Positions 9,678 to 61,550 of a stretch of DNA of 64,000 nt are shown here, piece after piece. Every line of letters begins with the position of its first letter. Position 1 is the stretch's first letter. The translations under genes and the position numbers were made by a program. The stretch covers positions 974 to 64,973 of the forward strand of contig JAFSOV010000004.1 in the NCBI GenBank assembly GCA_017443235.1, read 5' to 3'. The notes below the pieces were generated by a model. It worked only from the letters and a program-made list of their open reading frames with translations, did no database searches and was not told the DNA's origin. The stretch comes from Alphaproteobacteria bacterium (lineage in GTDB: Bacteria; Pseudomonadota; Alphaproteobacteria; Rs-D84).

Positions 9678-10652
9678 ATGAAAAAATTTGGGATTATCAT
9701 TTGTGGCATTTTTATGATTTTTTCTGCATTTGCCATGGGTGAAAATGTTCCAACATCCAAGAATTATGTGGATACCGCCGTTGCGGTAAAACAAGACAAA
9801 ATTTTGGCAAATGATGGTACGGCCCAGGTTTTAACCAACACGGGCACCGCGGGCGAAGTTGGGACAAAAGAAATCTATGATTCCACCGGTTCATACTTGG
9901 CACAAACCGATGCATTGATTGACGCCGTCACAATGAACACGGCGGTTCAAAACGCAATCAACAGTGAATTCCAATGCATTGAATACAACCCGAACGACCC
10001 AACCGATTGTTGGATAATGGATATTTTCGGCGAAACCGGGCAATCCATTTTACCATCGGGATACACCGCATTGGAATATATCGCCGGCACCGGAACACAA
10101 TACATTGATACGGGCGTTATACCAGATAATCTTACAGGCATTGATATAAAATTCAATAAATCCGCCACTGGAGACCAAGTCGTTTTTGGGATACTATCAT
10201 CGGTGACCACCCAACAATTATATATTAATCCTGTGGGCGGCAGTATTTATCTGCCATTTGCTGAAAAATATAATCAAGCGAGCGCCGGTATCCCGTTCAG
10301 CAACAATCTCGATTTTGATGTAAAGATTAATTATTTGAATGACAGGAAACGATATGTCAATGCCCGAAAAGCACCGGATATAAACAAAACACTAATTTCG
10401 CCGGAATATACAATGTACCTGTTTGCGGGCCATAGCGCAGGCGGGGCCGCCCGATGGTTTTTTAATGGTAAAGTTTATTATCTTAAAATCACAAACGGCG
10501 CCACAATTACGCATGATTTCGTTCCCGCGCGGCGCGATAGTGACGATAAAATTGGAATGTATGATATGGTCAGTGGCACATTCTTTACCAACTCTGGCAG
10601 TGGTGAATTTATTGCCGGGCCGGTTGTGAATTTGTATGTACCAAGCAACTAA
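9678..10652 (+). CDS. secreted protein, YVD-motif family, with a C-terminal tail-fibre-like module
   Basis: Signal peptide, then TSKNYVDTAVAVKQDKI and QCIEYN..DC blocks shared with 24672-25085 and 60538-61164. RBS AGGGGAA. Confidence 0.7.
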   Translation: MKKFGIIICGIFMIFSAFAMGENVPTSKNYVDTAVAVKQDKILANDGTAQVLTNTGTAGEVGTKEIYDSTGSYLAQTDALIDAVTMNTAVQNAINSEFQCIEYNPNDPTDCWIMDIFGETGQSILPSGYTALEYIAGTGTQYIDTGVIPDNLTGIDIKFNKSATGDQVVFGILSSVTTQQLYINPVGGSIYLPFAEKYNQASAGIPFSNNLDFDVKINYLNDRKRYVNARKAPDINKTLISPEYTMYLFAGHSAGGAARWFFNGKVYYLKITNGATITHDFVPARRDSDDKIGMYDMVSGTFFTNSGSGEFIAGPVVNLYVPSN

Positions 10653-21909: not shown

Positions 21910-24141
21910 ATGGTAAAAGAAATTATTGAAAGAATTGATTCACAACAATTGTCAGACGCGCTTTCTACGCGTTATTTGTCGTACGCGGTCAGTACGATTG
22001 TATCGCGCGCCCTGCCCGATGTGCGGGACGGCCTTAAACCGGTGCACCGGCGTATTTTGTATTCTATGTTGCGGCAAAAATTGTCGCCTGCGGCGGCTTT
22101 CCGCAAGTGCGCGACTGTCGTTGGCGATGTTTTGGGGCACTATCACCCGCATGGCGATTCGTCTGTTTATGATGCTATGGTCAGACTTGCCCAGGATTTT
22201 TCCGTCCGTTATCCCCTGATTGATGGCCAGGGTAATTTTGGAAACATCGACGGCGACCCCCAGGCGGCATACCGTTACACCGAATCAAAGATGACCGATG
22301 CGGCAATGCTGATTATGGATGGCATTGACGAAGACAGTGTTGATATGATGCCGAACTTTGACGGCACCACGGTTGAGCCTGTGGTTATGCCGGGTGCGTT
22401 TCCAAACTTGCTGGCCAATGGGGGGATGGGTATTGCGGTCGGTATGGCAACAAATATCCCAACACATAATGTGGCCGAGGTTTGTGATGCATTGACATTG
22501 ATGGTTGATAAACCCGAATCAACCACAGCCCAAATTATGAAAAAAATGATTGGGCCGGATTTTCCAACCGGGGGGGTGCTGATTGATAACTTTGAAACCA
22601 TAGTAAAAAACTATGAAACGGGTAAAGGCGCATTTCGCATTCGCGCGCGATATGAAATCGAAGAATTGGAACGCGGCGGGTACCAGGTTGTAATTACCGA
22701 AATTCCGTACGGCATTGTTAAATCCAAGATGGTGGAACAAATTGGCGAAATGATTGATGCCAAGAAATTACCACTGATTGACGATATTGTTGATGAATCG
22801 ACCACCGATGTCCGCATCGTTATCACACCAAAATCGCGGAATATTCCGGCGGATAAAATGATGGCGCATTTGTTTGCACTGACGGACGCGGAATATAAAT
22901 TCAATATGAATTTCAATGTGATTGATTCTAATGGCGCGCCGCGCGTTATGGGCATTCGCGATGTTTTATTGGAATTCATCGCGCACCAGAAAAATGTTTT
23001 GCTGCGGCGTTCTAAATGGCGTTTGGGTAATATTGACCGGCGTTTGGAAATATTGGGCGGGTTGCTGATTGTGTATTTGAATTTGGACCGTGTTATTGAA
23101 ATTATCCGCACCGAAGACGAACCTAAGGCCGTATTGATGGCGGAATTTAATTTGACGGAAATTCAGGTTGAATCTATTTTGAATACGCGTTTGCGCGCAT
23201 TGCGTAAATTGGAAGAAATGGAAATCCGGCGTGAAGATAAAAATTTGCGCGACGAACGCGAACAACTGATTGCGTTGCTTGGTGACCCCGAAATACAAAA
23301 TGCCCAGATTAAGGCATGGTTTGCCGATATTAAACGGCAATATGATAAAAAAACGACACTGGGACGCCGCCGCACAACATGGGCGCCATTGACCCAAGAC
23401 ATTACAATCAACGCCGAAGAATTTATTGAAAAAGAACCTGTCACAATAATCCTGTCCACTATGGGTTGGATTCGTGCGGCGCGGGGTCATTTGGATTTGA
23501 ACGCATTGGATTTGAAATTCAAAGAAGGTGACGAATTGCAATGCGCGTTTCACGCAATGTCCACCGATAAAATAAACCTGTTTGGCGCATCGGGTCGTAT
23601 GTTCACGCTTTCGGCCAATGATTTGCCGTCTGCACGCGGGTTTGGCGAATCGGTGCGTATGATGGCGGACATTGGTGCCGATGAAAACATTGTTCGTGCA
23701 TTTGTTCTGGACACGACCGCGAAATATTTGGTTGTATCACGTCACGGAAACGGGTTCATCGTTGCCGGCGAAAACTGTGTTGCGCAAACACGCACCGGGA
23801 AACAGGTTATGAACGTGGACGATAAAAATCCGGCGGCGTTCTGTGTTCCGGTTACCGGGGACATGGTTGCAATGTCCGGTTCAAACGATAAATTGTTGAT
23901 ATTTGCCGCGGCCGATGTTCCAGAAATGATTCGTGGCAAAGGTGTAATTTTACAGAAATACAATGCCGAACGGACATACGTGTTGGATGTAATGTTCTTT
24001 AACGCGGCGGACGGTTTTGGTTGGACAACGGGCCGCGGCACAACCAAATTGGATGATTGGCAACCGTGGGTCGGCCGCCGTGCAACCCAGGGCCGCACGA
24101 TTCCGGTCGGTTTCCCCCGCAGTGGAAAATTTGGGAAATAG
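21910..24141 (+). CDS. parC: DNA topoisomerase IV subunit A
   Basis: [11 protein letters not shown] and HPHGD blocks, catalytic Tyr block AAYRYTES. No GyrA box seen in the C-terminal domain. Confidence 0.88.
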
Positions 24142-24171
24142 TGGTTAGTGTTAGTGATTAGTGGTTAGTAA
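24139..24171. repeat. TAGTG(G/A)T tandem array (six-frame stop array), copy 1
   Basis: TAGTGGT TAGTGT TAGTGAT TAGTGGT TAGTAA. The first TAG is the parC stop. TAG/TAA fall in all three frames on each strand. Confidence 0.85.
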
Positions 24172-24174
24172 AAA

Positions 24175-24199
24175 CGGATGCGAATCACATCCGTTTTTT
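24175..24199 (+). terminator. intrinsic terminator after parC
   Basis: CGGATGCGAATCACATCCG hairpin plus T6. Confidence 0.65.
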
Positions 24200-24218
24200 A
24201 GTCCCCTTCTTATGAAGA

Positions 24219-24462
24219 AGGGGTGGCGCCGAATGGCGACGGGGTAGTTGCCTGATAATAAAAAATTCCAGAAAGTTTGTATTTTTCCACATATTTTCTT
24301 TCCATAAGAACTGTCATTCCGGACTTGGTCCGGAACAGGGTCTATAAACCTGTGACGAAGCAAAGTTCTCCTCCCTTGGAGGAGTACGGCCCAGCGGGCC
24401 GGGAGGTGGGGGGAATTTATATCTTTTTTACCCCCACCCCGTCGCCGTTCGGCGCCACCCCT
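24219..24462. repeat. MITE-like element with 26-bp terminal inverted repeats
   Basis: AGGGGTGGCGCCGAATGGCGACGGGG (24219-24244) matches the reverse complement of 24437-24462 at 25 of 26 positions. The interior is homologous to 42150-42225. Confidence 0.6.
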
Positions 24463-24671
24463 CCGGTCATCACCCACAAAAAACTGTGTTTTTTGTGGGG
24501 CCCGATGGAGGGGAACATAGAGCACACTGGTCAAAATAAATGTACCTTTTTGTCCACCATTTTTTTCACATATCCCGATTCAGTAAAATCAATGACTTAC
24601 AAAATCAGTAGGGTGGTCAATTTAAAGGTACCTTTTTGCTACACTATAAAGCGAGGAATAAAGGAGAACAT

Positions 24672-29020: not shown

Positions 29021-29097
29021 GGGGTGTTAGCTCAGCTGGTTAGAGCGTCTGCCTGTCACGCAGAAGGTCGAGGGTTCGAGCCCCTTACATCCCGCCA
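29021..29097 (+). tRNA. tRNA-Asp (GUC)
   Basis: GGGGTGTTAGCTCAGCTGGTTAGAGC..CTGTCAC..GGTTCGAGCCCCTTACATCCCGCCA cloverleaf. Confidence 0.92.
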
Positions 29098-29116
29098 GTT
29101 TTTTTGTGTCAGTTCC

Positions 29117-29191
29117 GGCCCCATCGTCTAATGGTTAGGACACCGCCCTTTCAAGGCGAGAATCCCGGTTCAAATCCGAGTGGGGCTGCCA
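29117..29191 (+). tRNA. tRNA-Glu (UUC)
   Basis: GGCCCCATCGTCTAATGGTTAGGACACCGCCCTTTCAAGGCG..TTCAAATCC..TGGGGCTGCCA. One mismatch each in the anticodon stem and the T stem. Confidence 0.85.
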
Positions 29192-30737
29192 AATCAGAGT
29201 CACCGTCCATTTGGGCGGTGTTTTCGTTGAAAATCTGCACTGTTGAGGCGGTTCGAAATCCTGATTCTTGGTGATAGACAGGTTTTTCAGTAAAAATCAA
29301 CCTAACAAGACGTCGTTTTTGCGAAATTGTGCCGCGTGACCATAGTAAATCAGGCCTTTTGAAAAATTCGCGTCCGTTTTCAATGGCGGTTCGAAATTTT
29401 TCTGCGACATTGGATGCAGTGTTATTTTCCAATTGTTTTTCCAATGCTTGCTTGTTGGCATTTAGTTCTTTAATTTGCCCCTGGTATATGTTCGCCAAAT
29501 CTTTATCACCACTTGCCAGAGCATTCATAACCAGCGCAGTGATTCCCGATATTTGTTGTTTTATTTTTGTTATTTTATCGTGCGTCTTGTTGTTTGCGCT
29601 GGTTATTTCGTTTTCCCTAATTTTGCCTATCTTTGTAATCATGGCACAGCATAAATCAAGAAACTTGTCTGTCGCTTTTAATGTGCGCAGTTTTTCCACA
29701 AAAGCATCTTCAATAAGGTTCCTGCGTATGGATTTTTTGTGAAACACGCATTCTTTGTTATGGCACCTGTAATATGGATGCATACACCCCCTTGTTCCGC
29801 TTTTCGCGTAATAGCCGGTTAATGGATGCCCACAATGCTCACAAAACACCTCGTGTCGCAATGGAAAATCATCGGCAATAGTGGATTTATATGATTTATA
29901 ACCCCCTTTGTCTAATCTGGCTTGAACAGCATCGAACAAATCCATTGGTATCAGTTTAACCATTTTCCATTCTTGTAGTGGTATTTCCCATTTGTCATAA
30001 GCAAACACACCAGTATAAACCACATTGTGCAGGATATCATTTGCGGCTGTATCGGTTATTCTGCGACCGTTCCATGCATCATGCGAATTTAAGAAATCTG
30101 CGACCGCATGTTTGGTTGCCAATTCGCCACTGGCATATTTGGCGAATGCTTGCTGTATCAATGTGGCCTTTGGTTCGTCTGGCACCAAAATAACCTTGTT
30201 ATGTTCATCTTTTTGCCTTTTTAACCCCAATGGCGGATTTAGTGGGTAATAACCAAGTGTCATTAAAGAGCGCATAGAGGCTCTGGTCTTTTCTGATAGT
30301 TCGTCACTAAACCGTCGTGCATTTAGTATGTCTATTCCGCGCACAAAACGACCTGTGGCATTGTTCTGTGATTTTCCGGCCACGACCGTTAATAGTTCTA
30401 TATCGTATTTTATAACCAAGTTTTCAAACCGGCTAAACACCTCTAAATTGCGCGATAATCGCGACATATCAAAGAACAAGACCCTTATTCGCTTGTTTTT
30501 CTGTTCTTGGGTTATATATTCCATCATCATGTCAAGCCCCGGGCGGTCAGTTTTCCACCCAGATACCCCGTCTTCATAAAAGAACTTATCAATTATAAAT
30601 CCGTTGTTTTTCGCATAATCCAAACATGCCTGTTTTTGTGACATGATGGTTTCTTTCTTTGCTTGTTTGTCTGATGAAACACGGCACAGACACAATGTTT
30701 CAATTGGTTTTTCTTTGGTTGGTATATATTTTTTCAT
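29151..30737 (-). CDS. large serine recombinase
   Basis: 528 aa. Resolvase catalytic block LCRVSSDKQ and YEDGVSG, recombinase domain, Zn-ribbon CEHCGH..C..C, coiled-coil tail. The 3' end runs into tRNA-Glu. Confidence 0.85.
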   Translation of the reverse strand: MKKYIPTKEKPIETLCLCRVSSDKQAKKETIMSQKQACLDYAKNNGFIIDKFFYEDGVSGWKTDRPGLDMMMEYITQEQKNKRIRVLFFDMSRLSRNLEVFSRFENLVIKYDIELLTVVAGKSQNNATGRFVRGIDILNARRFSDELSEKTRASMRSLMTLGYYPLNPPLGLKRQKDEHNKVILVPDEPKATLIQQAFAKYASGELATKHAVADFLNSHDAWNGRRITDTAANDILHNVVYTGVFAYDKWEIPLQEWKMVKLIPMDLFDAVQARLDKGGYKSYKSTIADDFPLRHEVFCEHCGHPLTGYYAKSGTRGCMHPYYRCHNKECVFHKKSIRRNLIEDAFVEKLRTLKATDKFLDLCCAMITKIGKIRENEITSANNKTHDKITKIKQQISGITALVMNALASGDKDLANIYQGQIKELNANKQALEKQLENNTASNVAEKFRTAIENGREFFKRPDLLWSRGTISQKRRLVRLIFTEKPVYHQESGFRTASTVQIFNENTAQMDGDSDLAAPLGFEPGFSP

Positions 30738-49945: not shown

Positions 49946-50530
49946 ATGAAAAACACAAAAGAAAAATTGTTGGAAAATGCGACTACTATGTTCGCAGAGC
50001 ATGGATTTGACGGCGTATCTACACGCAGTTTGGTTACCGTGTCCATGGTGAATTTATGCACAATAAATTACTATTTCGGTTCCAAACAGAAATTATATGA
50101 TGCGGTTATTGACAATATTATAAATAATGTTCAAGAAAACCTTATTAAAAAGACGGATGAATATATCAAATGCAATATTCCGGCCGGTGAAAAAATTGTT
50201 TTTATAATTGGGGAATTTTTTGATTATCTGTTTTCTAATAATGTTTCAAATTCTATGGCATTGATTTTGTTTCGCGAATTGTTAAACACAACACCGGGTG
50301 GCGACAGAATTTATTCAGAAATTATGGAGCCATTAAAAAAACAATTTGTAAATTTGATAATCCAAGAAACCGGCGCAACAAAACAAAGCGCATATATCAA
50401 TGCACATTGCCTGGTTAGCCAGACCGTATCTTTTCGATTATTGCAAAACAGAAAACATTATTCACGCGAATTTCTAAAAAGCGCAAAGCAACAAATTATC
50501 GAAAACTGTAAAAAAATTTTGGAACATTAA
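49946..50530 (+). CDS. TetR-family transcriptional regulator
   Basis: N-terminal HTH FAEHGFDGVSTRSLVTVSMVNLCTINYYFGSKQKLY. Confidence 0.8.
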   Translation: MKNTKEKLLENATTMFAEHGFDGVSTRSLVTVSMVNLCTINYYFGSKQKLYDAVIDNIINNVQENLIKKTDEYIKCNIPAGEKIVFIIGEFFDYLFSNNVSNSMALILFRELLNTTPGGDRIYSEIMEPLKKQFVNLIIQETGATKQSAYINAHCLVSQTVSFRLLQNRKHYSREFLKSAKQQIIENCKKILEH

Positions 50531-50557
50531 AAAACGGAATCAATCGATTCCGTTTTT
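50525..50557. repeat. terminator hairpin, left copy of a duplicated ~33-bp sequence
   Basis: CATTAAAAAACGGAATCAATCGATTCCGTTTTT recurs at 53471-53506, with three extra A there. Confidence 0.8.
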
Positions 50558-50604
50558 TTAGTTTTTGTTTTCTTAACTAGAAATATGGGATTTGTTTAAG
50601 AAAA

Positions 50605-53470: not shown

Positions 53471-53506
53471 CATTAAAAAAAAACGGAATCAATCGATTCC
53501 GTTTTT
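53471..53506. repeat. terminator hairpin, right copy of the duplicated sequence
   Basis: CATTAAAAAAAAACGGAATCAATCGATTCCGTTTTT. Confidence 0.8.
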
Positions 53507-53509
53507 AAT

Positions 53510-54265
53510 TTATTCTTTGTTTTCTTGTTTGGCGCGTTCTTTTTCGTGCCGGTCAACCGCATTCGCAACGCTTTCTATTTGCAGTAATTGATTTTCCAAT
53601 GCGCTGCGTTCAGAATTTTTATAACCGGTTTCTTCGTTTCCCGCCGGTGACGGACGCGTGTCTTTACCCGGCACTGCATCGCCGTCAACCACACGCGGAT
53701 TAATCAGGTTATCAAAAATCTTTTTTGATTCACGCGAACCCGCGACATCACGTTGCAACAATTTGTTTTCCGGGCCGGGGATAAACCATTCGTCCAATTT
53801 AACCGCCGTCATTTGCATAATTGGACGCGTGCGCGCATCTTCTATCCAATGCGGCATACGCGGCGCATCCGAATAATACCATAATGCAACCCAATACGCC
53901 ACACCCATAACAATAACACCACGAACAATACCAAATATCACCCCCAATGTGTGGTCGGTGACATTCATCACGCTGTCTTGAATACGGTCACGCAGTTTCT
54001 GGTTAAAGAATCCGGCAATCAACAATATCACAAAGAACACAATGAAATACGATGCCACCAATGTTCCAACCGTTGATTCGGCCAACCCAAACCAAGATTG
54101 CAACAATCCATCCAACCAAGGCGACACAAAACGCGCCGTCACCGCCGCCACAACCCATGACAGTGTGGCAACGGTTTCGTAAATTCCGCCACGAATTGTC
54201 GCCCATACCGTTGACGCCAACAACACGCCAATATAGATATAATCAAGTCCAGTTAAATTAAACAT
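53510..54265 (-). CDS. cvpA: CvpA-family membrane protein
   Basis: Four N-terminal TM helices with the CvpA-like start (DYIYIGVLLASTVWATIRG) and a hydrophilic tail. Confidence 0.65.
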   Translation of the reverse strand: MFNLTGLDYIYIGVLLASTVWATIRGGIYETVATLSWVVAAVTARFVSPWLDGLLQSWFGLAESTVGTLVASYFIVFFVILLIAGFFNQKLRDRIQDSVMNVTDHTLGVIFGIVRGVIVMGVAYWVALWYYSDAPRMPHWIEDARTRPIMQMTAVKLDEWFIPGPENKLLQRDVAGSRESKKIFDNLINPRVVDGDAVPGKDTRPSPAGNEETGYKNSERSALENQLLQIESVANAVDRHEKERAKQENKE

Positions 54266-56921: not shown

Positions 56922-56955
56922 ATCGCTCTCCTGTTGGAAACATTATAGCATATTT

Positions 56956-56984
56956 TAGTGATTAGTGTTAGTGGTTAGTGTTAG
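56956..56984. repeat. TAGTG(G/A)T tandem array, copy 3
   Basis: TAGTGAT TAGTGT TAGTGGT TAGTGT TAG, adjacent to a terminator homologous to 24175-24199. Confidence 0.8.
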
Positions 56985-56987
56985 CAC

Positions 56988-57020
56988 AAAAAAACGGATG
57001 CAATCGCATCCGTTTTTTTT
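56988..57020. terminator. bidirectional terminator after proS
   Basis: A7-CGGATGCAATCGCATCCG-T8. Confidence 0.65.
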
Positions 57021-59124: not shown

Positions 59125-60078
59125 TTAATCCTCGGCCTCGGTTGCGGGTTCATCGATAAATTCCGCATCCGCCGCGTCTTCACGCAGCAAGAATTCAAAG
59201 AACGCGCCCAACATATTCAATGGCCCCGTAATCGGCATCAGCATAATTTTCCCCAACGTCTGCATCGGGTGCGGTTTAACATCCAAATGATCCAACGCAT
59301 TTGCACGACCATAGAAATGTTTTTGATACGCGGCATCCATATTTTTAGACTGCATCATAACAAAGACATCGTACGTGTTAAACGGTTTATCAATAAATAC
59401 GCCCGCCCCGAACGTGGCACCCATACGCAGGTATCCCTTGATAAGTGGTGTCATTTGTTTTTTTGCCATTTCTTCATCAACAAACGCGCGTGGCAAAATA
59501 TTCATTTTCGACATACGCGGGTCCGCACCATCGGCAAAATTTTCCGGTATCACGCGTGCGCGCAGACGCAACGGCGACAAATGATTGTAATACAGGTAAG
59601 ATATCGCCTGGGCCGATTCAACAGGCTTTTGCCCAACCCAAGACGCAACACCGAATAAAACCGCAATACGCCGGCGTAAAACATATTCACTTAACCCCGC
59701 CCACAACATACGCATCACCAACGCGTTTTCACGATATTCGCGTGCGACACAGGCGCGCGACATTTCGGCAATATTGTCCGATGCCTTTTTAATCTTGGAA
59801 ATATTAAATTCTGTTTCGGTATAGAACCCACCCATTTTGTCGGCGGCCTTTTTATCTATGATACGATATGTGCCAACGATTTTTCCGTTATGAAACACCG
59901 CCATATAGTCCGCATATTTATCAAATTCATCGAATTCTTCGTGCAATTCGTGTTGTTCATCCGTGGCGGATGCGCCCTCTTCGGTGACAAAAACGTCATA
60001 GCGCAGATTGCGCACCATACGGCGTTCTTCTTTGTTCCGCGTAAGGCGAACTTCGAAATCACGAACCTTGATAGCCAT
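59125..60078 (-). CDS. olsB: GNAT-fold N-acyltransferase (OlsB/hemolysin-like)
   Basis: 317 aa. Family-like N-terminal region (RLRYDVF-type block LRYDVFVTEEGA) and coupling to an acyltransferase gene. Confidence 0.6.
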   Translation of the reverse strand: MAIKVRDFEVRLTRNKEERRMVRNLRYDVFVTEEGASATDEQHELHEEFDEFDKYADYMAVFHNGKIVGTYRIIDKKAADKMGGFYTETEFNISKIKKASDNIAEMSRACVAREYRENALVMRMLWAGLSEYVLRRRIAVLFGVASWVGQKPVESAQAISYLYYNHLSPLRLRARVIPENFADGADPRMSKMNILPRAFVDEEMAKKQMTPLIKGYLRMGATFGAGVFIDKPFNTYDVFVMMQSKNMDAAYQKHFYGRANALDHLDVKPHPMQTLGKIMLMPITGPLNMLGAFFEFLLREDAADAEFIDEPATEAED

Positions 60079-60150
60079 AGAATAACCCCTTGGTTTTCAA
60101 TAACGTCGCATTAAGAATACCAAACAATGCAAGCCCACGCAATAGTTTTT

Positions 60151-60181
60151 TAGTGGTTAGTGTTAGTGTTAGTGGTTAGTA
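60151..60181. repeat. TAGTG(G)T tandem array, copy 4
   Basis: TAGTGGT TAGTGT TAGTGT TAGTGGT TAGTA. Confidence 0.8.
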
Positions 60182-60431: not shown

Positions 60432-60480
60432 TTCCCCTTCACACCGTGAAGGGGGGGACCACCGGAGGTGGTGGGGTAGT
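60432..60480. repeat. GC-rich double-hairpin module, variant of 41481-41529
   Basis: CCCCTTCACACCGTGAAGGGGGGGACCACCGGAGGTGGTGGGGTAG. The second stem changes from CCGCG/CGCGG to CCACC/GGTGG. Confidence 0.75.
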
Positions 60481-60537
60481 TTTACTTCACTGCGCAACGT
60501 GGGTAAAAAAGAACAAGGAACAAAGGGGAGAATCACA

Positions 60538-61247: not shown

Positions 61248-61550
61248 ATGCTAACAAATCCAGAAAACATTGTTTCTTTAACAGATTTTAAGCGCAATGC
61301 GGCGGATATTGTTCGACGTATAAGGGATGAAAAATTGCCGGCTGTACTGACCGTCAATGGTGCGGCATCTGTGGTGGTGATTGACGCACATGAATATAAC
61401 AGAATCGCACGCGATGCAGAAATGGGTTCCATGATGCGTGGTATCGAAGATGGTTTGAAAAGCATGCAAGAAAATCGTGGTATGCCTTTGGATACCGCGT
61501 TTGAAATGTTGAAACAAGATATACGACTTGCAACAAAACGTCAGGGTTAG
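61248..61550 (+). CDS. Phd/YefM-family antitoxin
   Basis: SLTDFKRNAADIVRRIRDEKLPAVLTVNGAASVVVIDAHEY is typical of the family. Confidence 0.75.
   Translation: MLTNPENIVSLTDFKRNAADIVRRIRDEKLPAVLTVNGAASVVVIDAHEYNRIARDAEMGSMMRGIEDGLKSMQENRGMPLDTAFEMLKQDIRLATKRQG

Follow-up and report, generated by a model that had tools for sequence, protein, structure and literature searches.

Dispersed heptamer arrays are, to our knowledge, among the most abundant unexplained repeats of bacteria, and we know of no family for which a function has been established. Described examples are the intergenic GGGAATC arrays of Xanthomonas and GGGGA(C/T)T arrays of Nostoc (Rehm et al. 2015, PMC4692102) and the TAACTGA repeats of marine Beggiatoaceae, Cyanobacteria and some Bacteroidetes (MacGregor 2015, PMC4679880). 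Here, a short tandem array of TAGTGGT, TAGTGAT and TAGTGT units was analysed, which lies at the end of the topoisomerase IV gene parC in a 64,000-nt stretch of DNA (the window) from an alphaproteobacterium of lineage Rs-D84 (assembly GCA_017443235.1, contig JAFSOV010000004.1, positions 974 to 64,973). The array is real and non-random, and it is a member of this known, poorly understood class of intergenic repeats. We tentatively favour the reading that the parC array (A1) is a copy of a clade-specific dispersed extragenic repeat, which forms the arm module of palindromic cassettes marking cistron boundaries. No description of the TAGTG family was found in the literature, where the exact 12-mer appeared only as an incidental string in vertebrate papers, and no mention of repeats was found in the literature on Candidatus Enterousia, to which the host is related.

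With the Xanthomonas and Nostoc arrays the TAGTG family shares a lineage-specific heptamer, short arrays of typically ~4 units and a genome-wide non-coding distribution; proximity to the open reading frame (ORF) on the 5' side, overlap with stop codons and rarity between divergent ORFs; and occasional inversion as well as a usual retention between the same gene pairs in relatives, with sequence and length varying (PMC4692102). A tandem unit of 5-11 nt, dispersed non-coding copies and positional polarity, by which the dispersed intergenic heptamer class (LSSR) is recognised, were all found. The TAGTG arrays differ in mixing 7-nt and 6-nt units, in carrying a stop codon per unit, in terminating essential genes and in their host, a reduced-genome gut alphaproteobacterium. 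The G-tract units of Xanthomonas and Nostoc form G-quadruplexes, whereas TAGTG units have at most GG, which in many arrays occurs just twice. A G-quadruplex was excluded from the sequence: A1 has two GG dinucleotides and TAGTGT units have none, so that the canonical structure is impossible. The TAACTGA repeats resemble the family as a stop-containing heptamer, present in 2-6 repeats at well over a hundred intergenic sites, with a patchy spread that includes unrelated phyla and a position beside ribosomal and RNA-polymerase genes (PMC4679880). They lie mostly upstream of start codons (PMC4679880), whereas TAGTG arrays lie mostly at stop codons facing hairpins, and upstream of starts they occur only as the reverse complement.

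The family further shares traits with REP/BIME mosaics and with Correia-type miniature inverted-repeat transposable elements (MITEs), but lacks several of the features that define them. REP and BIME are extragenic palindromes of enterobacteria and pseudomonads, which form mosaics and inverted pairs and occur within transcription units. TAGTG arrays are likewise extragenic, lie at 3' ends, in convergent spacers and in operons, and are interleaved with GC-rich palindromic modules; a single array is, however, a C-free direct repeat without strong self-pairing, and stems arise only from inverted pairs. Neither a RAYT (Y1 transposase) nor a conserved GTAG-plus-hairpin unit was identified, GTAG not being conserved in the TAGTG unit, although no search for RAYT proteins was made. 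Correia/NEMIS MITEs of Neisseria are palindromes of ~100-150 bp with inverted arms, which lie near genes, are co-transcribed and supply promoters or terminators. One cassette-sized gain in the zapA-parC spacer and a TAGTG arm that contributes a -35-like box recall these elements, whereas the lack of target-site duplications, the variable arms, the several unrelated centres and the mostly single arms in the window set the TAGTG family apart. The arrays were not recognised as the ends of any characterised insertion sequence or MITE, and no target-site duplication was seen.

The parC array and its counterparts in the window

The gene that ends in A1 was identified as parC by its match to TIGR01062 (parC_Gneg; 811.6 bits, cutoff 628.9). 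The initial annotation had held that the first TAG of the array supplies the parC stop, that the array places stops in all six frames and that a U-tailed hairpin follows directly, and all three statements agree with the sequence: the ORF ends at 24141, stops are present in 3/3 forward and 3/3 reverse frames, and the hairpin adjoins the array (gggaaaTAGTGGTTAGTGTTAGTGATTAGTGGTTAGTAAAAACGGATGCGAATCACATCCGTTTTTT for 24133-24199, comprising the parC end, A1 and the hairpin; Table 1). The ParC C-terminus ...GFPRSGKFG(K/R) is near-invariant among 120 homologues, ending in ...FGK in 112 and in ...FGR in 8, with internal S/N and K/R variants in 3/120; A1 therefore begins precisely where the protein naturally ends. 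At a gene end, such a sequence does no harm and can itself take the place of the stop codon. Array and hairpin together (24139-24205, 67 nt) fold with a minimum free energy of -15.1 kcal/mol (z = -2.8), and zero C residues are present in A1.

Three similar arrays, A2 to A4, exist where they had been annotated. Each covers three frames on its own strand and two on the complement, so that none of them has the six-frame stops of A1. When searched with at most one mismatch, TAGTGRTTAGTG gave 9 matches in the window against 0.27 expected, a number that 0/100 shuffles reached, and Tandem Repeats Finder reported a period of 7/13 with 2.3-4.7 copies at the four sites. The density is 4 arrays in 64 kb, or ~1 per 16 kb. 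While A1 and A2 are placed at gene ends, A3 lies over a promoter-like site and A4 in a divergent spacer. The view that the array is fused to a terminator was borne out for A1 and A3 (a U-tailed hairpin lies 3' of these two out of four, at 24139 and 56956), but neither for A2, which is followed by a degenerate inverted array, nor for A4, 3' of which no significant hairpin was found (fold z = +0.57). The hairpins at A1 and A3 show the GC-rich stem-loop and U tract of an intrinsic terminator, with the array outside the stem. They are 93% identical, and the two array-plus-hairpin modules are homologous.

The gene preceding the bidirectional terminator near A3 is prolyl-tRNA-synthetase-like (proS). 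The promoter-like site for ldh combines a -35-like CTAACA, contributed by the reverse complement of A3, with TGcTATAAT at a spacing of 18 nt. A4 is located 73 nt upstream of a 317-aa acyltransferase-like gene on the minus strand, with its start at 60078.

Table 1. Positions of the parC array, the related arrays and their adjoining features in the window.
Feature	Position	Strand	Remark
parC, topoisomerase IV subunit A, 743 aa	ORF 21910-24141	+	profile TIGR01062
parC stop codon	24139-24141	+	first TAG of A1
Array A1, TAGTGGT TAGTGT TAGTGAT TAGTGGT TAGTA	24139-24170	+	C-free, stops in six frames
Intrinsic-terminator-like hairpin, A tract and U tail, AAAAACGGATGCGAATCACATCCGTTTTTT	24170-24199	+	directly 3' of A1
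GC-rich mosaic of palindromic repeats	24200-24470	.	immediately after A1 module
Degenerate inverted partner of A2, CGAAGTGG CGAAGTGG GA	42267-42284	+	base-pairs with A2 in predicted fold
Array A2, TAGTGGT TAGTGGA TAGTGT TAGTT	42285-42308	-	
Stop of 565-aa ORF 42306-44003	42306-42308	-	first TAG of A2
ldh start	56921	-	opposite strand to A3
Promoter-like site for ldh	56942-56971	-	10/12 matches
Array A3, TAGTGAT TAGTGT TAGTGGT TAGTGT TAG	56956-56984	+	between proS terminator and ldh start
Bidirectional terminator hairpin, 14 pairs	56988-57019	.	z about -6, either strand
Array A4, TAGTGGT TAGTGT TAGTGT TAGTGGT TAGTA	60151-60181	+	divergent spacer

A clade-wide repeat family

The window has a G+C content of 42.7%, and its ParC shares 94% identity with the ParC of a metagenome-assembled genome (MAG) labelled Candidatus Enterousia sp. 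Enterousia is placed in the uncultured order Rs-D84 and has genomes of 0.75-1.0 Mb; a reduced-genome MAG set that includes it spans 671-1,611 kbp with 81-94% coding (PMC12306168). An alternative genetic code was considered for the window and rejected, as TAA, TGA and TAG serve as stops of ORFs of at least 100 aa in a ratio of 41:16:9.

For the clade scan, the exact 18-mer TAGTGRTTAGTGTTAGTG was searched in one genome per species (596 Gb), where by our own arithmetic ~35 chance matches are expected. At least 118 loci were found, at least 100 of them from at least 39 MAGs labelled Enterousia, Alphaproteobacteria or rumen 'proteobacterium', often with several loci per MAG; the array-bearing MAGs are species-level and represent rumen and gut Alphaproteobacteria. 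The arrays are not confined to the window but form a clade-wide family, and the initial suspicion of 'the end of an unknown repeat family' linked with termination signals was broadly right, given the gene-end preference, the supply of stops and the orientation towards hairpins described below. The remaining 18 of the listed loci come from unrelated phyla with 26-65% G+C. Since these are genuine multi-unit arrays, the unit must arise sporadically elsewhere too.

The off-clade arrays were found in MAGs labelled Saprospiraceae, Saccharibacteria, Acidobacteriota, Nitrospinota, Prevotellaceae, Planctomycetota and Gammaproteobacteria, and also in Bacteroidota; examples are, in the numbering used here for the relatives' loci compared with the window, L007, L011, L022, L024, L035, L049, L055 and L069. 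Some of them repeat the layout of array, hairpin and inverted array, and a few could be mis-binned contigs.

The listed loci and the window together hold at least 213 arrays of at least three units, to which the array statistics in this and the following section refer. TAGTGT was counted 233 times, TAGTGGT 212 times and TAGTGAT 81 times; C makes up 1.4% of the array strand. Each unit position is conserved to ~83-85%, the stop triplets being no exception, and stops in six frames were found in 87/213 arrays (41%). An apparent enrichment of 7/6 alternation (13-nt period) was discarded as unreliable, because the search pattern itself forces a 7-6 step.

An estimate independent of the motif was obtained from parC-centred loci, a sample chosen without regard to it. 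At ParC identities of at least 85%, the array density is 1.24 per 10 kb, compared with 0.013 in shuffles; the 69 kb examined at 80-84% identity contained no array, and at 72-79% the density is 0.07 per 10 kb. In total, this corresponds to 8 arrays per 64 kb (>=85%) versus 1 per 221 kb (72-84%). The comparison of parC 3' ends called for by the initial annotation gave the same boundary, arrays or their remnants being confined to relatives whose ParC identity is 85% or higher. A search for a phage origin returned the 18-mer in only 2 viral contigs, both of which look like chromosomal or prophage DNA of Enterousia and have the neighbouring modules known from there.

The distribution bears on two further explanations. 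DUS (Neisseriaceae) and USS (Pasteurellaceae) are DNA uptake signals that cluster as inverted pairs at terminators and occur, also within coding regions, at a density of roughly 1 per kb. That the TAGTG arrays are such a signal is very unlikely. It would fit with a clade-specific conserved sequence whose inverted pairs flank terminators, and a reduced-genome host might salvage DNA (PMC12306168); the density in the window, however, is only ~1 per 16 kb, the units form tandem arrays of variable length and not a fixed 9-12-mer, and the arrays are barred from coding sequence by the stops in their units.

Hardly credible at all is the reading as a hypermutable simple-sequence repeat that works as a switch for phase variation, or as a product of chance slippage restricted to this genome. 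Tandem units of 6-7 nt are the most slippage-prone size class (Mrazek 2007, as reported in PMC4679880), and the unit number at orthologous sites does differ between species. Against this, at least 39 species have this unit in common, the observed density in close relatives exceeds that of the shuffles as given above, the neighbours are housekeeping genes (parC, rpoB, rpmG, zapA, ldh), and the arrays are identical in independent assemblies of the same species (A1, n = 5; A3, n = 3; A4, n = 3), revealing no length variation at strain level among these 3-5 assemblies per array.

Polarity, hairpins and inverted pairs

Polarity is stated in the TAGTG orientation (n = 213). ORFs were called crudely at a minimum of 80 aa, so that small genes of the rpmG type are missed, loci were picked by a strict pattern, and orthologous arrays of related species enter the statistics repeatedly.

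The gene on the 5' side of the array is co-oriented with it in 129 cases and runs on the opposite strand in 67. Where it is co-oriented, the median distance from stop codon to array is 2 nt; the first TAG is itself the stop codon in 36/129 of these gene-end cases, and 58/129 have their stop within the array. The 3' side served as an internal control, where a facing gene end is equally close in 3/128 cases with a median of 92 nt; the medians on the 3' side are 92-185 nt. Folding of 45-nt segments gave medians of -11.1 kcal/mol downstream, -5.75 kcal/mol upstream and -5.95 kcal/mol for random segments, and values of -10 kcal/mol or below were reached by 54% of downstream segments versus 17% of those used for comparison. 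TAGTA is the final unit of 24% of the arrays, while it accounts for 0.5% of internal units. These data show that the array is polar, with its 5' end against a gene and its 3' end, often TAGTA, facing a hairpin that is frequently an intrinsic terminator.

It is likewise shown that a mirror-image array often lies beyond the hairpin. Inverted pairs comprise 72/213 arrays, mostly 20-50 nt apart, and fold at -24 to -58 kcal/mol. Read as terminal inverted repeats of a MITE, such pairs are represented in the window by A2 only, with its short degenerate partner, and neither a uniform length nor a conserved interior was found. The centres between the arms are of at least three unrelated kinds, namely a CTGGAAT...ATTCCAG hairpin, GC-stem terminators and a GTGCGGCAAATGCCGCAC hairpin. 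Within one pair, arms are not extra-complementary to each other, same-pair and cross-pair duplex energies being equal (p = 0.86), although this test is uninformative. Arrays are over-represented in convergent spacers (39% versus a 22% baseline) and under-represented in divergent ones (11% versus 18-23%; p = 1e-8), and they point either way with respect to transcription. A TGnTATAAT box lies exactly 5 nt from six arrays, of which three are orthologous.

A conserved palindromic hairpin family of the form TCTGGAAT..CGTAATTACG..ATTCCAGA was observed between inverted TAGTG arrays in many relatives (L017, L021, L026, L052, L079, L089, L099, L124 at 9880-9922, L128 and L191). It is often trailed by a AAAGCAAAGTTCYCCTC...GAGG module, which also occurs in the window at 24355-24384; of the TCTGGAAT..ATTCCAGA hairpin itself there is no intact window copy, but a possible remnant at 24266-24276.

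The rpoB-rpoC spacer of five species (L008, L016, L030, L048 and L058) has a fixed order: the rpoB stop, which opens a forward arm as its first unit, is followed by a hairpin, the reverse arm CACTAACCACTAACACTAACCACTAACA, a Shine-Dalgarno sequence and finally the ATG of rpoC. Conservation of the reverse arm is ~90%, whereas the central hairpins of the species are unrelated. As rpoB and rpoC are co-transcribed in bacteria generally, the cassette cannot be an efficient terminator at this site. The translation-plus-transcription insulator envisaged in the initial annotation thus survives in part: stops are supplied and hairpins are faced, but only 41% of the arrays close six frames, the whole unit is conserved and pairs occur between rpoB and rpoC.

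TAG is present in every unit and TAA, in most cases, on its complement; an array placed against a gene end therefore becomes its stop codon, as in parC and the 565-aa gene. Under the cistron-boundary reading favoured here, the arms would be short C-free tandem arrays of TAGTGGT/TAGTGAT heptads and TAGTGT hexads in Candidatus Enterousia-like Alphaproteobacteria, and a boundary cassette would consist of a stop arm, a hairpin and, on its far side, a start arm or another stop arm. For a transcript entering the hairpin, the G/U-rich arm would close reading frames and would provide ~25-35 nt of weakly structured RNA between stop codon and hairpin; for a transcript leaving it, the G-free CACUAAC arm would be positioned just upstream of the next Shine-Dalgarno sequence or promoter. 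Where both arms are present, they may pair into a long stem. Possible uses to the host would be frame closure, spacing between the terminator and the terminating ribosome, a long stem that acts in the processing or stability of the RNA, and an unstructured leader upstream of the next gene. Whole cassettes may have spread by duplication or insertion and may later have been kept by selection or homogenisation. The six-frame stop property is, in this reading, a co-opted by-product of the unit sequence and not a design principle.

HutP recognises UAG-N4 repeats that adjoin a terminator; WATCACW heptads are the site of the omega repressor, and their complement, AGTGATT, occurs in TAGTG arrays. We regard it as unlikely that the TAGTG arrays are binding sites of this kind, with one protomer per 6-7-nt unit, either of an RNA-binding protein that would act on termination or translation (HutP, TRAP, cold-shock or S1-type) or of a DNA-binding protein of the ribbon-helix-helix type, which polymerises on heptad repeats. 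Such a reader would account for the conservation of the full unit beyond the stop triplets, the persistence of one unit in at least 39 species, the conserved rpoC-proximal reverse arm beside a non-conserved central hairpin and the fixed 5-nt distance of six arrays from the TGnTATAAT box, and the same idea has been put forward for the TAACTGA heptamers (MacGregor 2015, PMC4679880). No candidate protein was identified, however, the spacing is irregular with 7-nt and 6-nt units mixed, and the occurrence of both orientations to transcription means that an RNA-only reader would meet two different sequences.

More speculative still, and improbable in our judgement, is a dedicated multimeric protein that would read the 6-7-nt units as cistron punctuation and thereby set termination, anti-termination, mRNA processing or translational coupling, its target being (UAGUGGU)n and/or (CACUAAC)n RNA or duplex DNA. 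If true, ~50 gene boundaries, including rpoB-rpoC, parC and rpmG, would be governed in this way in genomes of ~0.9 Mb.

Retention, gain and loss of arrays

The parC arrays of the window and of L177 are identical at 29/32 positions, compared with 47% at four-fold sites and ~50% in the following 60 nt. Among the array-bearing parC relatives (85-92% identity), the unit number varies and point changes occur, whereas relatives below 85% mostly have TAA and then the terminator directly. In L124, despite 94% ParC identity, the parC stop is TAA and no array is present there. Retention in very compact genomes and conservation beyond neutral divergence speak in favour of constraint or homogenisation, while the gains and losses of arrays and their dispensability at parC point to a selfish component.

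A gain was observed in the zapA-parC spacer, where a ~105-nt cassette of array, hairpin and inverted array is present in L124 and L128 and missing from the window, L125 and L127. In this single filled/empty case, ~12 nt are replaced and no target-site duplication was created. Searching the flanks by BLAST for more such sites yielded many orthologous filled-filled comparisons and no further clean empty site, and no target-site duplication was detected when direct repeats were sought in the flanks of 25 inverted pairs. Two near-identical cassettes lie 5.7 kb apart in L021. L197, which encodes an identical 317-aa protein, does not have A4; its homology to window 60079-60181 stops exactly at the array edge, the break being upstream of a conserved promoter-like segment. 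In orthologous genes compared between L044/L192 and L191, one species uses TGA followed by the array, and another the array's own TAG.

These events would fit a selfish or neutral MITE- or BIME-like element, in which the arrays would be arms or solo arms of small palindromic mobile elements without host function, surviving only in spacers and pushed against stop codons by deletional compaction. We consider this explanation possible, though rather doubtful. Besides the gained zapA-parC cassette, the L021 duplicates, the L197 synteny break exactly at A4 and the exchange of stop codons between L044/L192 and L191, it is favoured by the homology of the A1 and A3 modules, by presence/absence differences between species at 90-94% ParC identity and by the adjacency of arrays to other GC-rich mosaic palindromic repeats. 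On the other side, none of the 25 pairs has a target-site duplication, the central sequences belong to several unrelated hairpin types, unit number and order differ among copies, and no cognate transposase was seen, albeit without a systematic search for one. Moreover, an identity of ~90% at orthologous sites where four-fold sites are saturated is hard to square with neutrality under deletional bias.

The cistron-boundary reading has to be set against several observations that weigh against it. A3 and A4 lie away from gene ends, and A4 lacks a hairpin; only 41% of arrays close six frames; the complementarity of arms is no better within a pair than across pairs; and the array is dispensable at parC, being absent from the 94%-identical relative and from most relatives below 85%. 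The only filled/empty comparison is not a clean insertion, and strict-pattern ascertainment, crude ORFs and repeat counting weaken the statistics. The boundary or insulator role itself is inferred. A purpose-built six-frame insulator, as initially proposed, is not supported, given the array-free 94%-identical relative and the two of four window arrays that lie away from gene ends.

As material for study, the family offers small gene-dense genomes, where useless DNA should be lost, a sharp stop-array-hairpin polarity, arrays that supply stop codons of essential genes, the rpoB-rpoC spacer and retention past neutral saturation. In combination, these advantages make the alternative of boundary element versus tolerated selfish repeat directly testable. 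In MAGs of Rs-D84, gene callers and terminator predictors should expect arrays at gene ends and contig breaks.

The DNA 3' of parC (24141 onwards) differs in almost every relative (L124-L127, L128-L187), and the next gene varies between YjbR, rpmG, a helix-turn-helix protein, a glycosyltransferase and others, which marks this site as a rearrangement hotspot in otherwise syntenic small genomes. GC-rich palindromic mosaics occupy AT-rich spacers of the window at 24200-24470, 41464-42284 and 60433-60481, and no more than 300 nt separate three of the window's four arrays from such modules. The mosaic 3' of A1 contains 27-nt inverted repeats (24219-24245 and 24436-24462). A 48-nt segment is common to 24359-24406 and 42176-42223 with 92% identity, and 60433-60481 has pieces in common with this material. 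Between tRNA-Leu and the 565-aa gene, the mosaic extends over ~1.1 kb, which is unusual for a genome of ~0.9 Mb; this GC-rich non-coding stretch includes a perfect 51-nt direct repeat (41479-41529 and 42001-42051). Searches against Rfam at gathering thresholds returned tRNAs only for the window and, for three array-rich loci, a spurious plant miRNA-precursor on a long hairpin as the sole match.

The window terminators at 50530-50560, 53480-53510, 57019-56988 and 24170-24199 have the form AAAAACGGA(T/A)(G/T)C-loop-G(A/C)(A/T)TCCGTTTTT, and AAAAAACGGA, with 8 copies, is among the commonest 10-mers. A 528-aa large serine recombinase (Resolvase and Zn_ribbon_recom domains) is encoded on the minus strand at 29151-30737; it adjoins a tRNA-Asp/tRNA-Glu pair (29021-29191) and may be part of an integrated element. 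To the right of A4, a variable region contains a Phd/YefM antitoxin and ParE toxin pair (61248-61550 and the adjacent gene).

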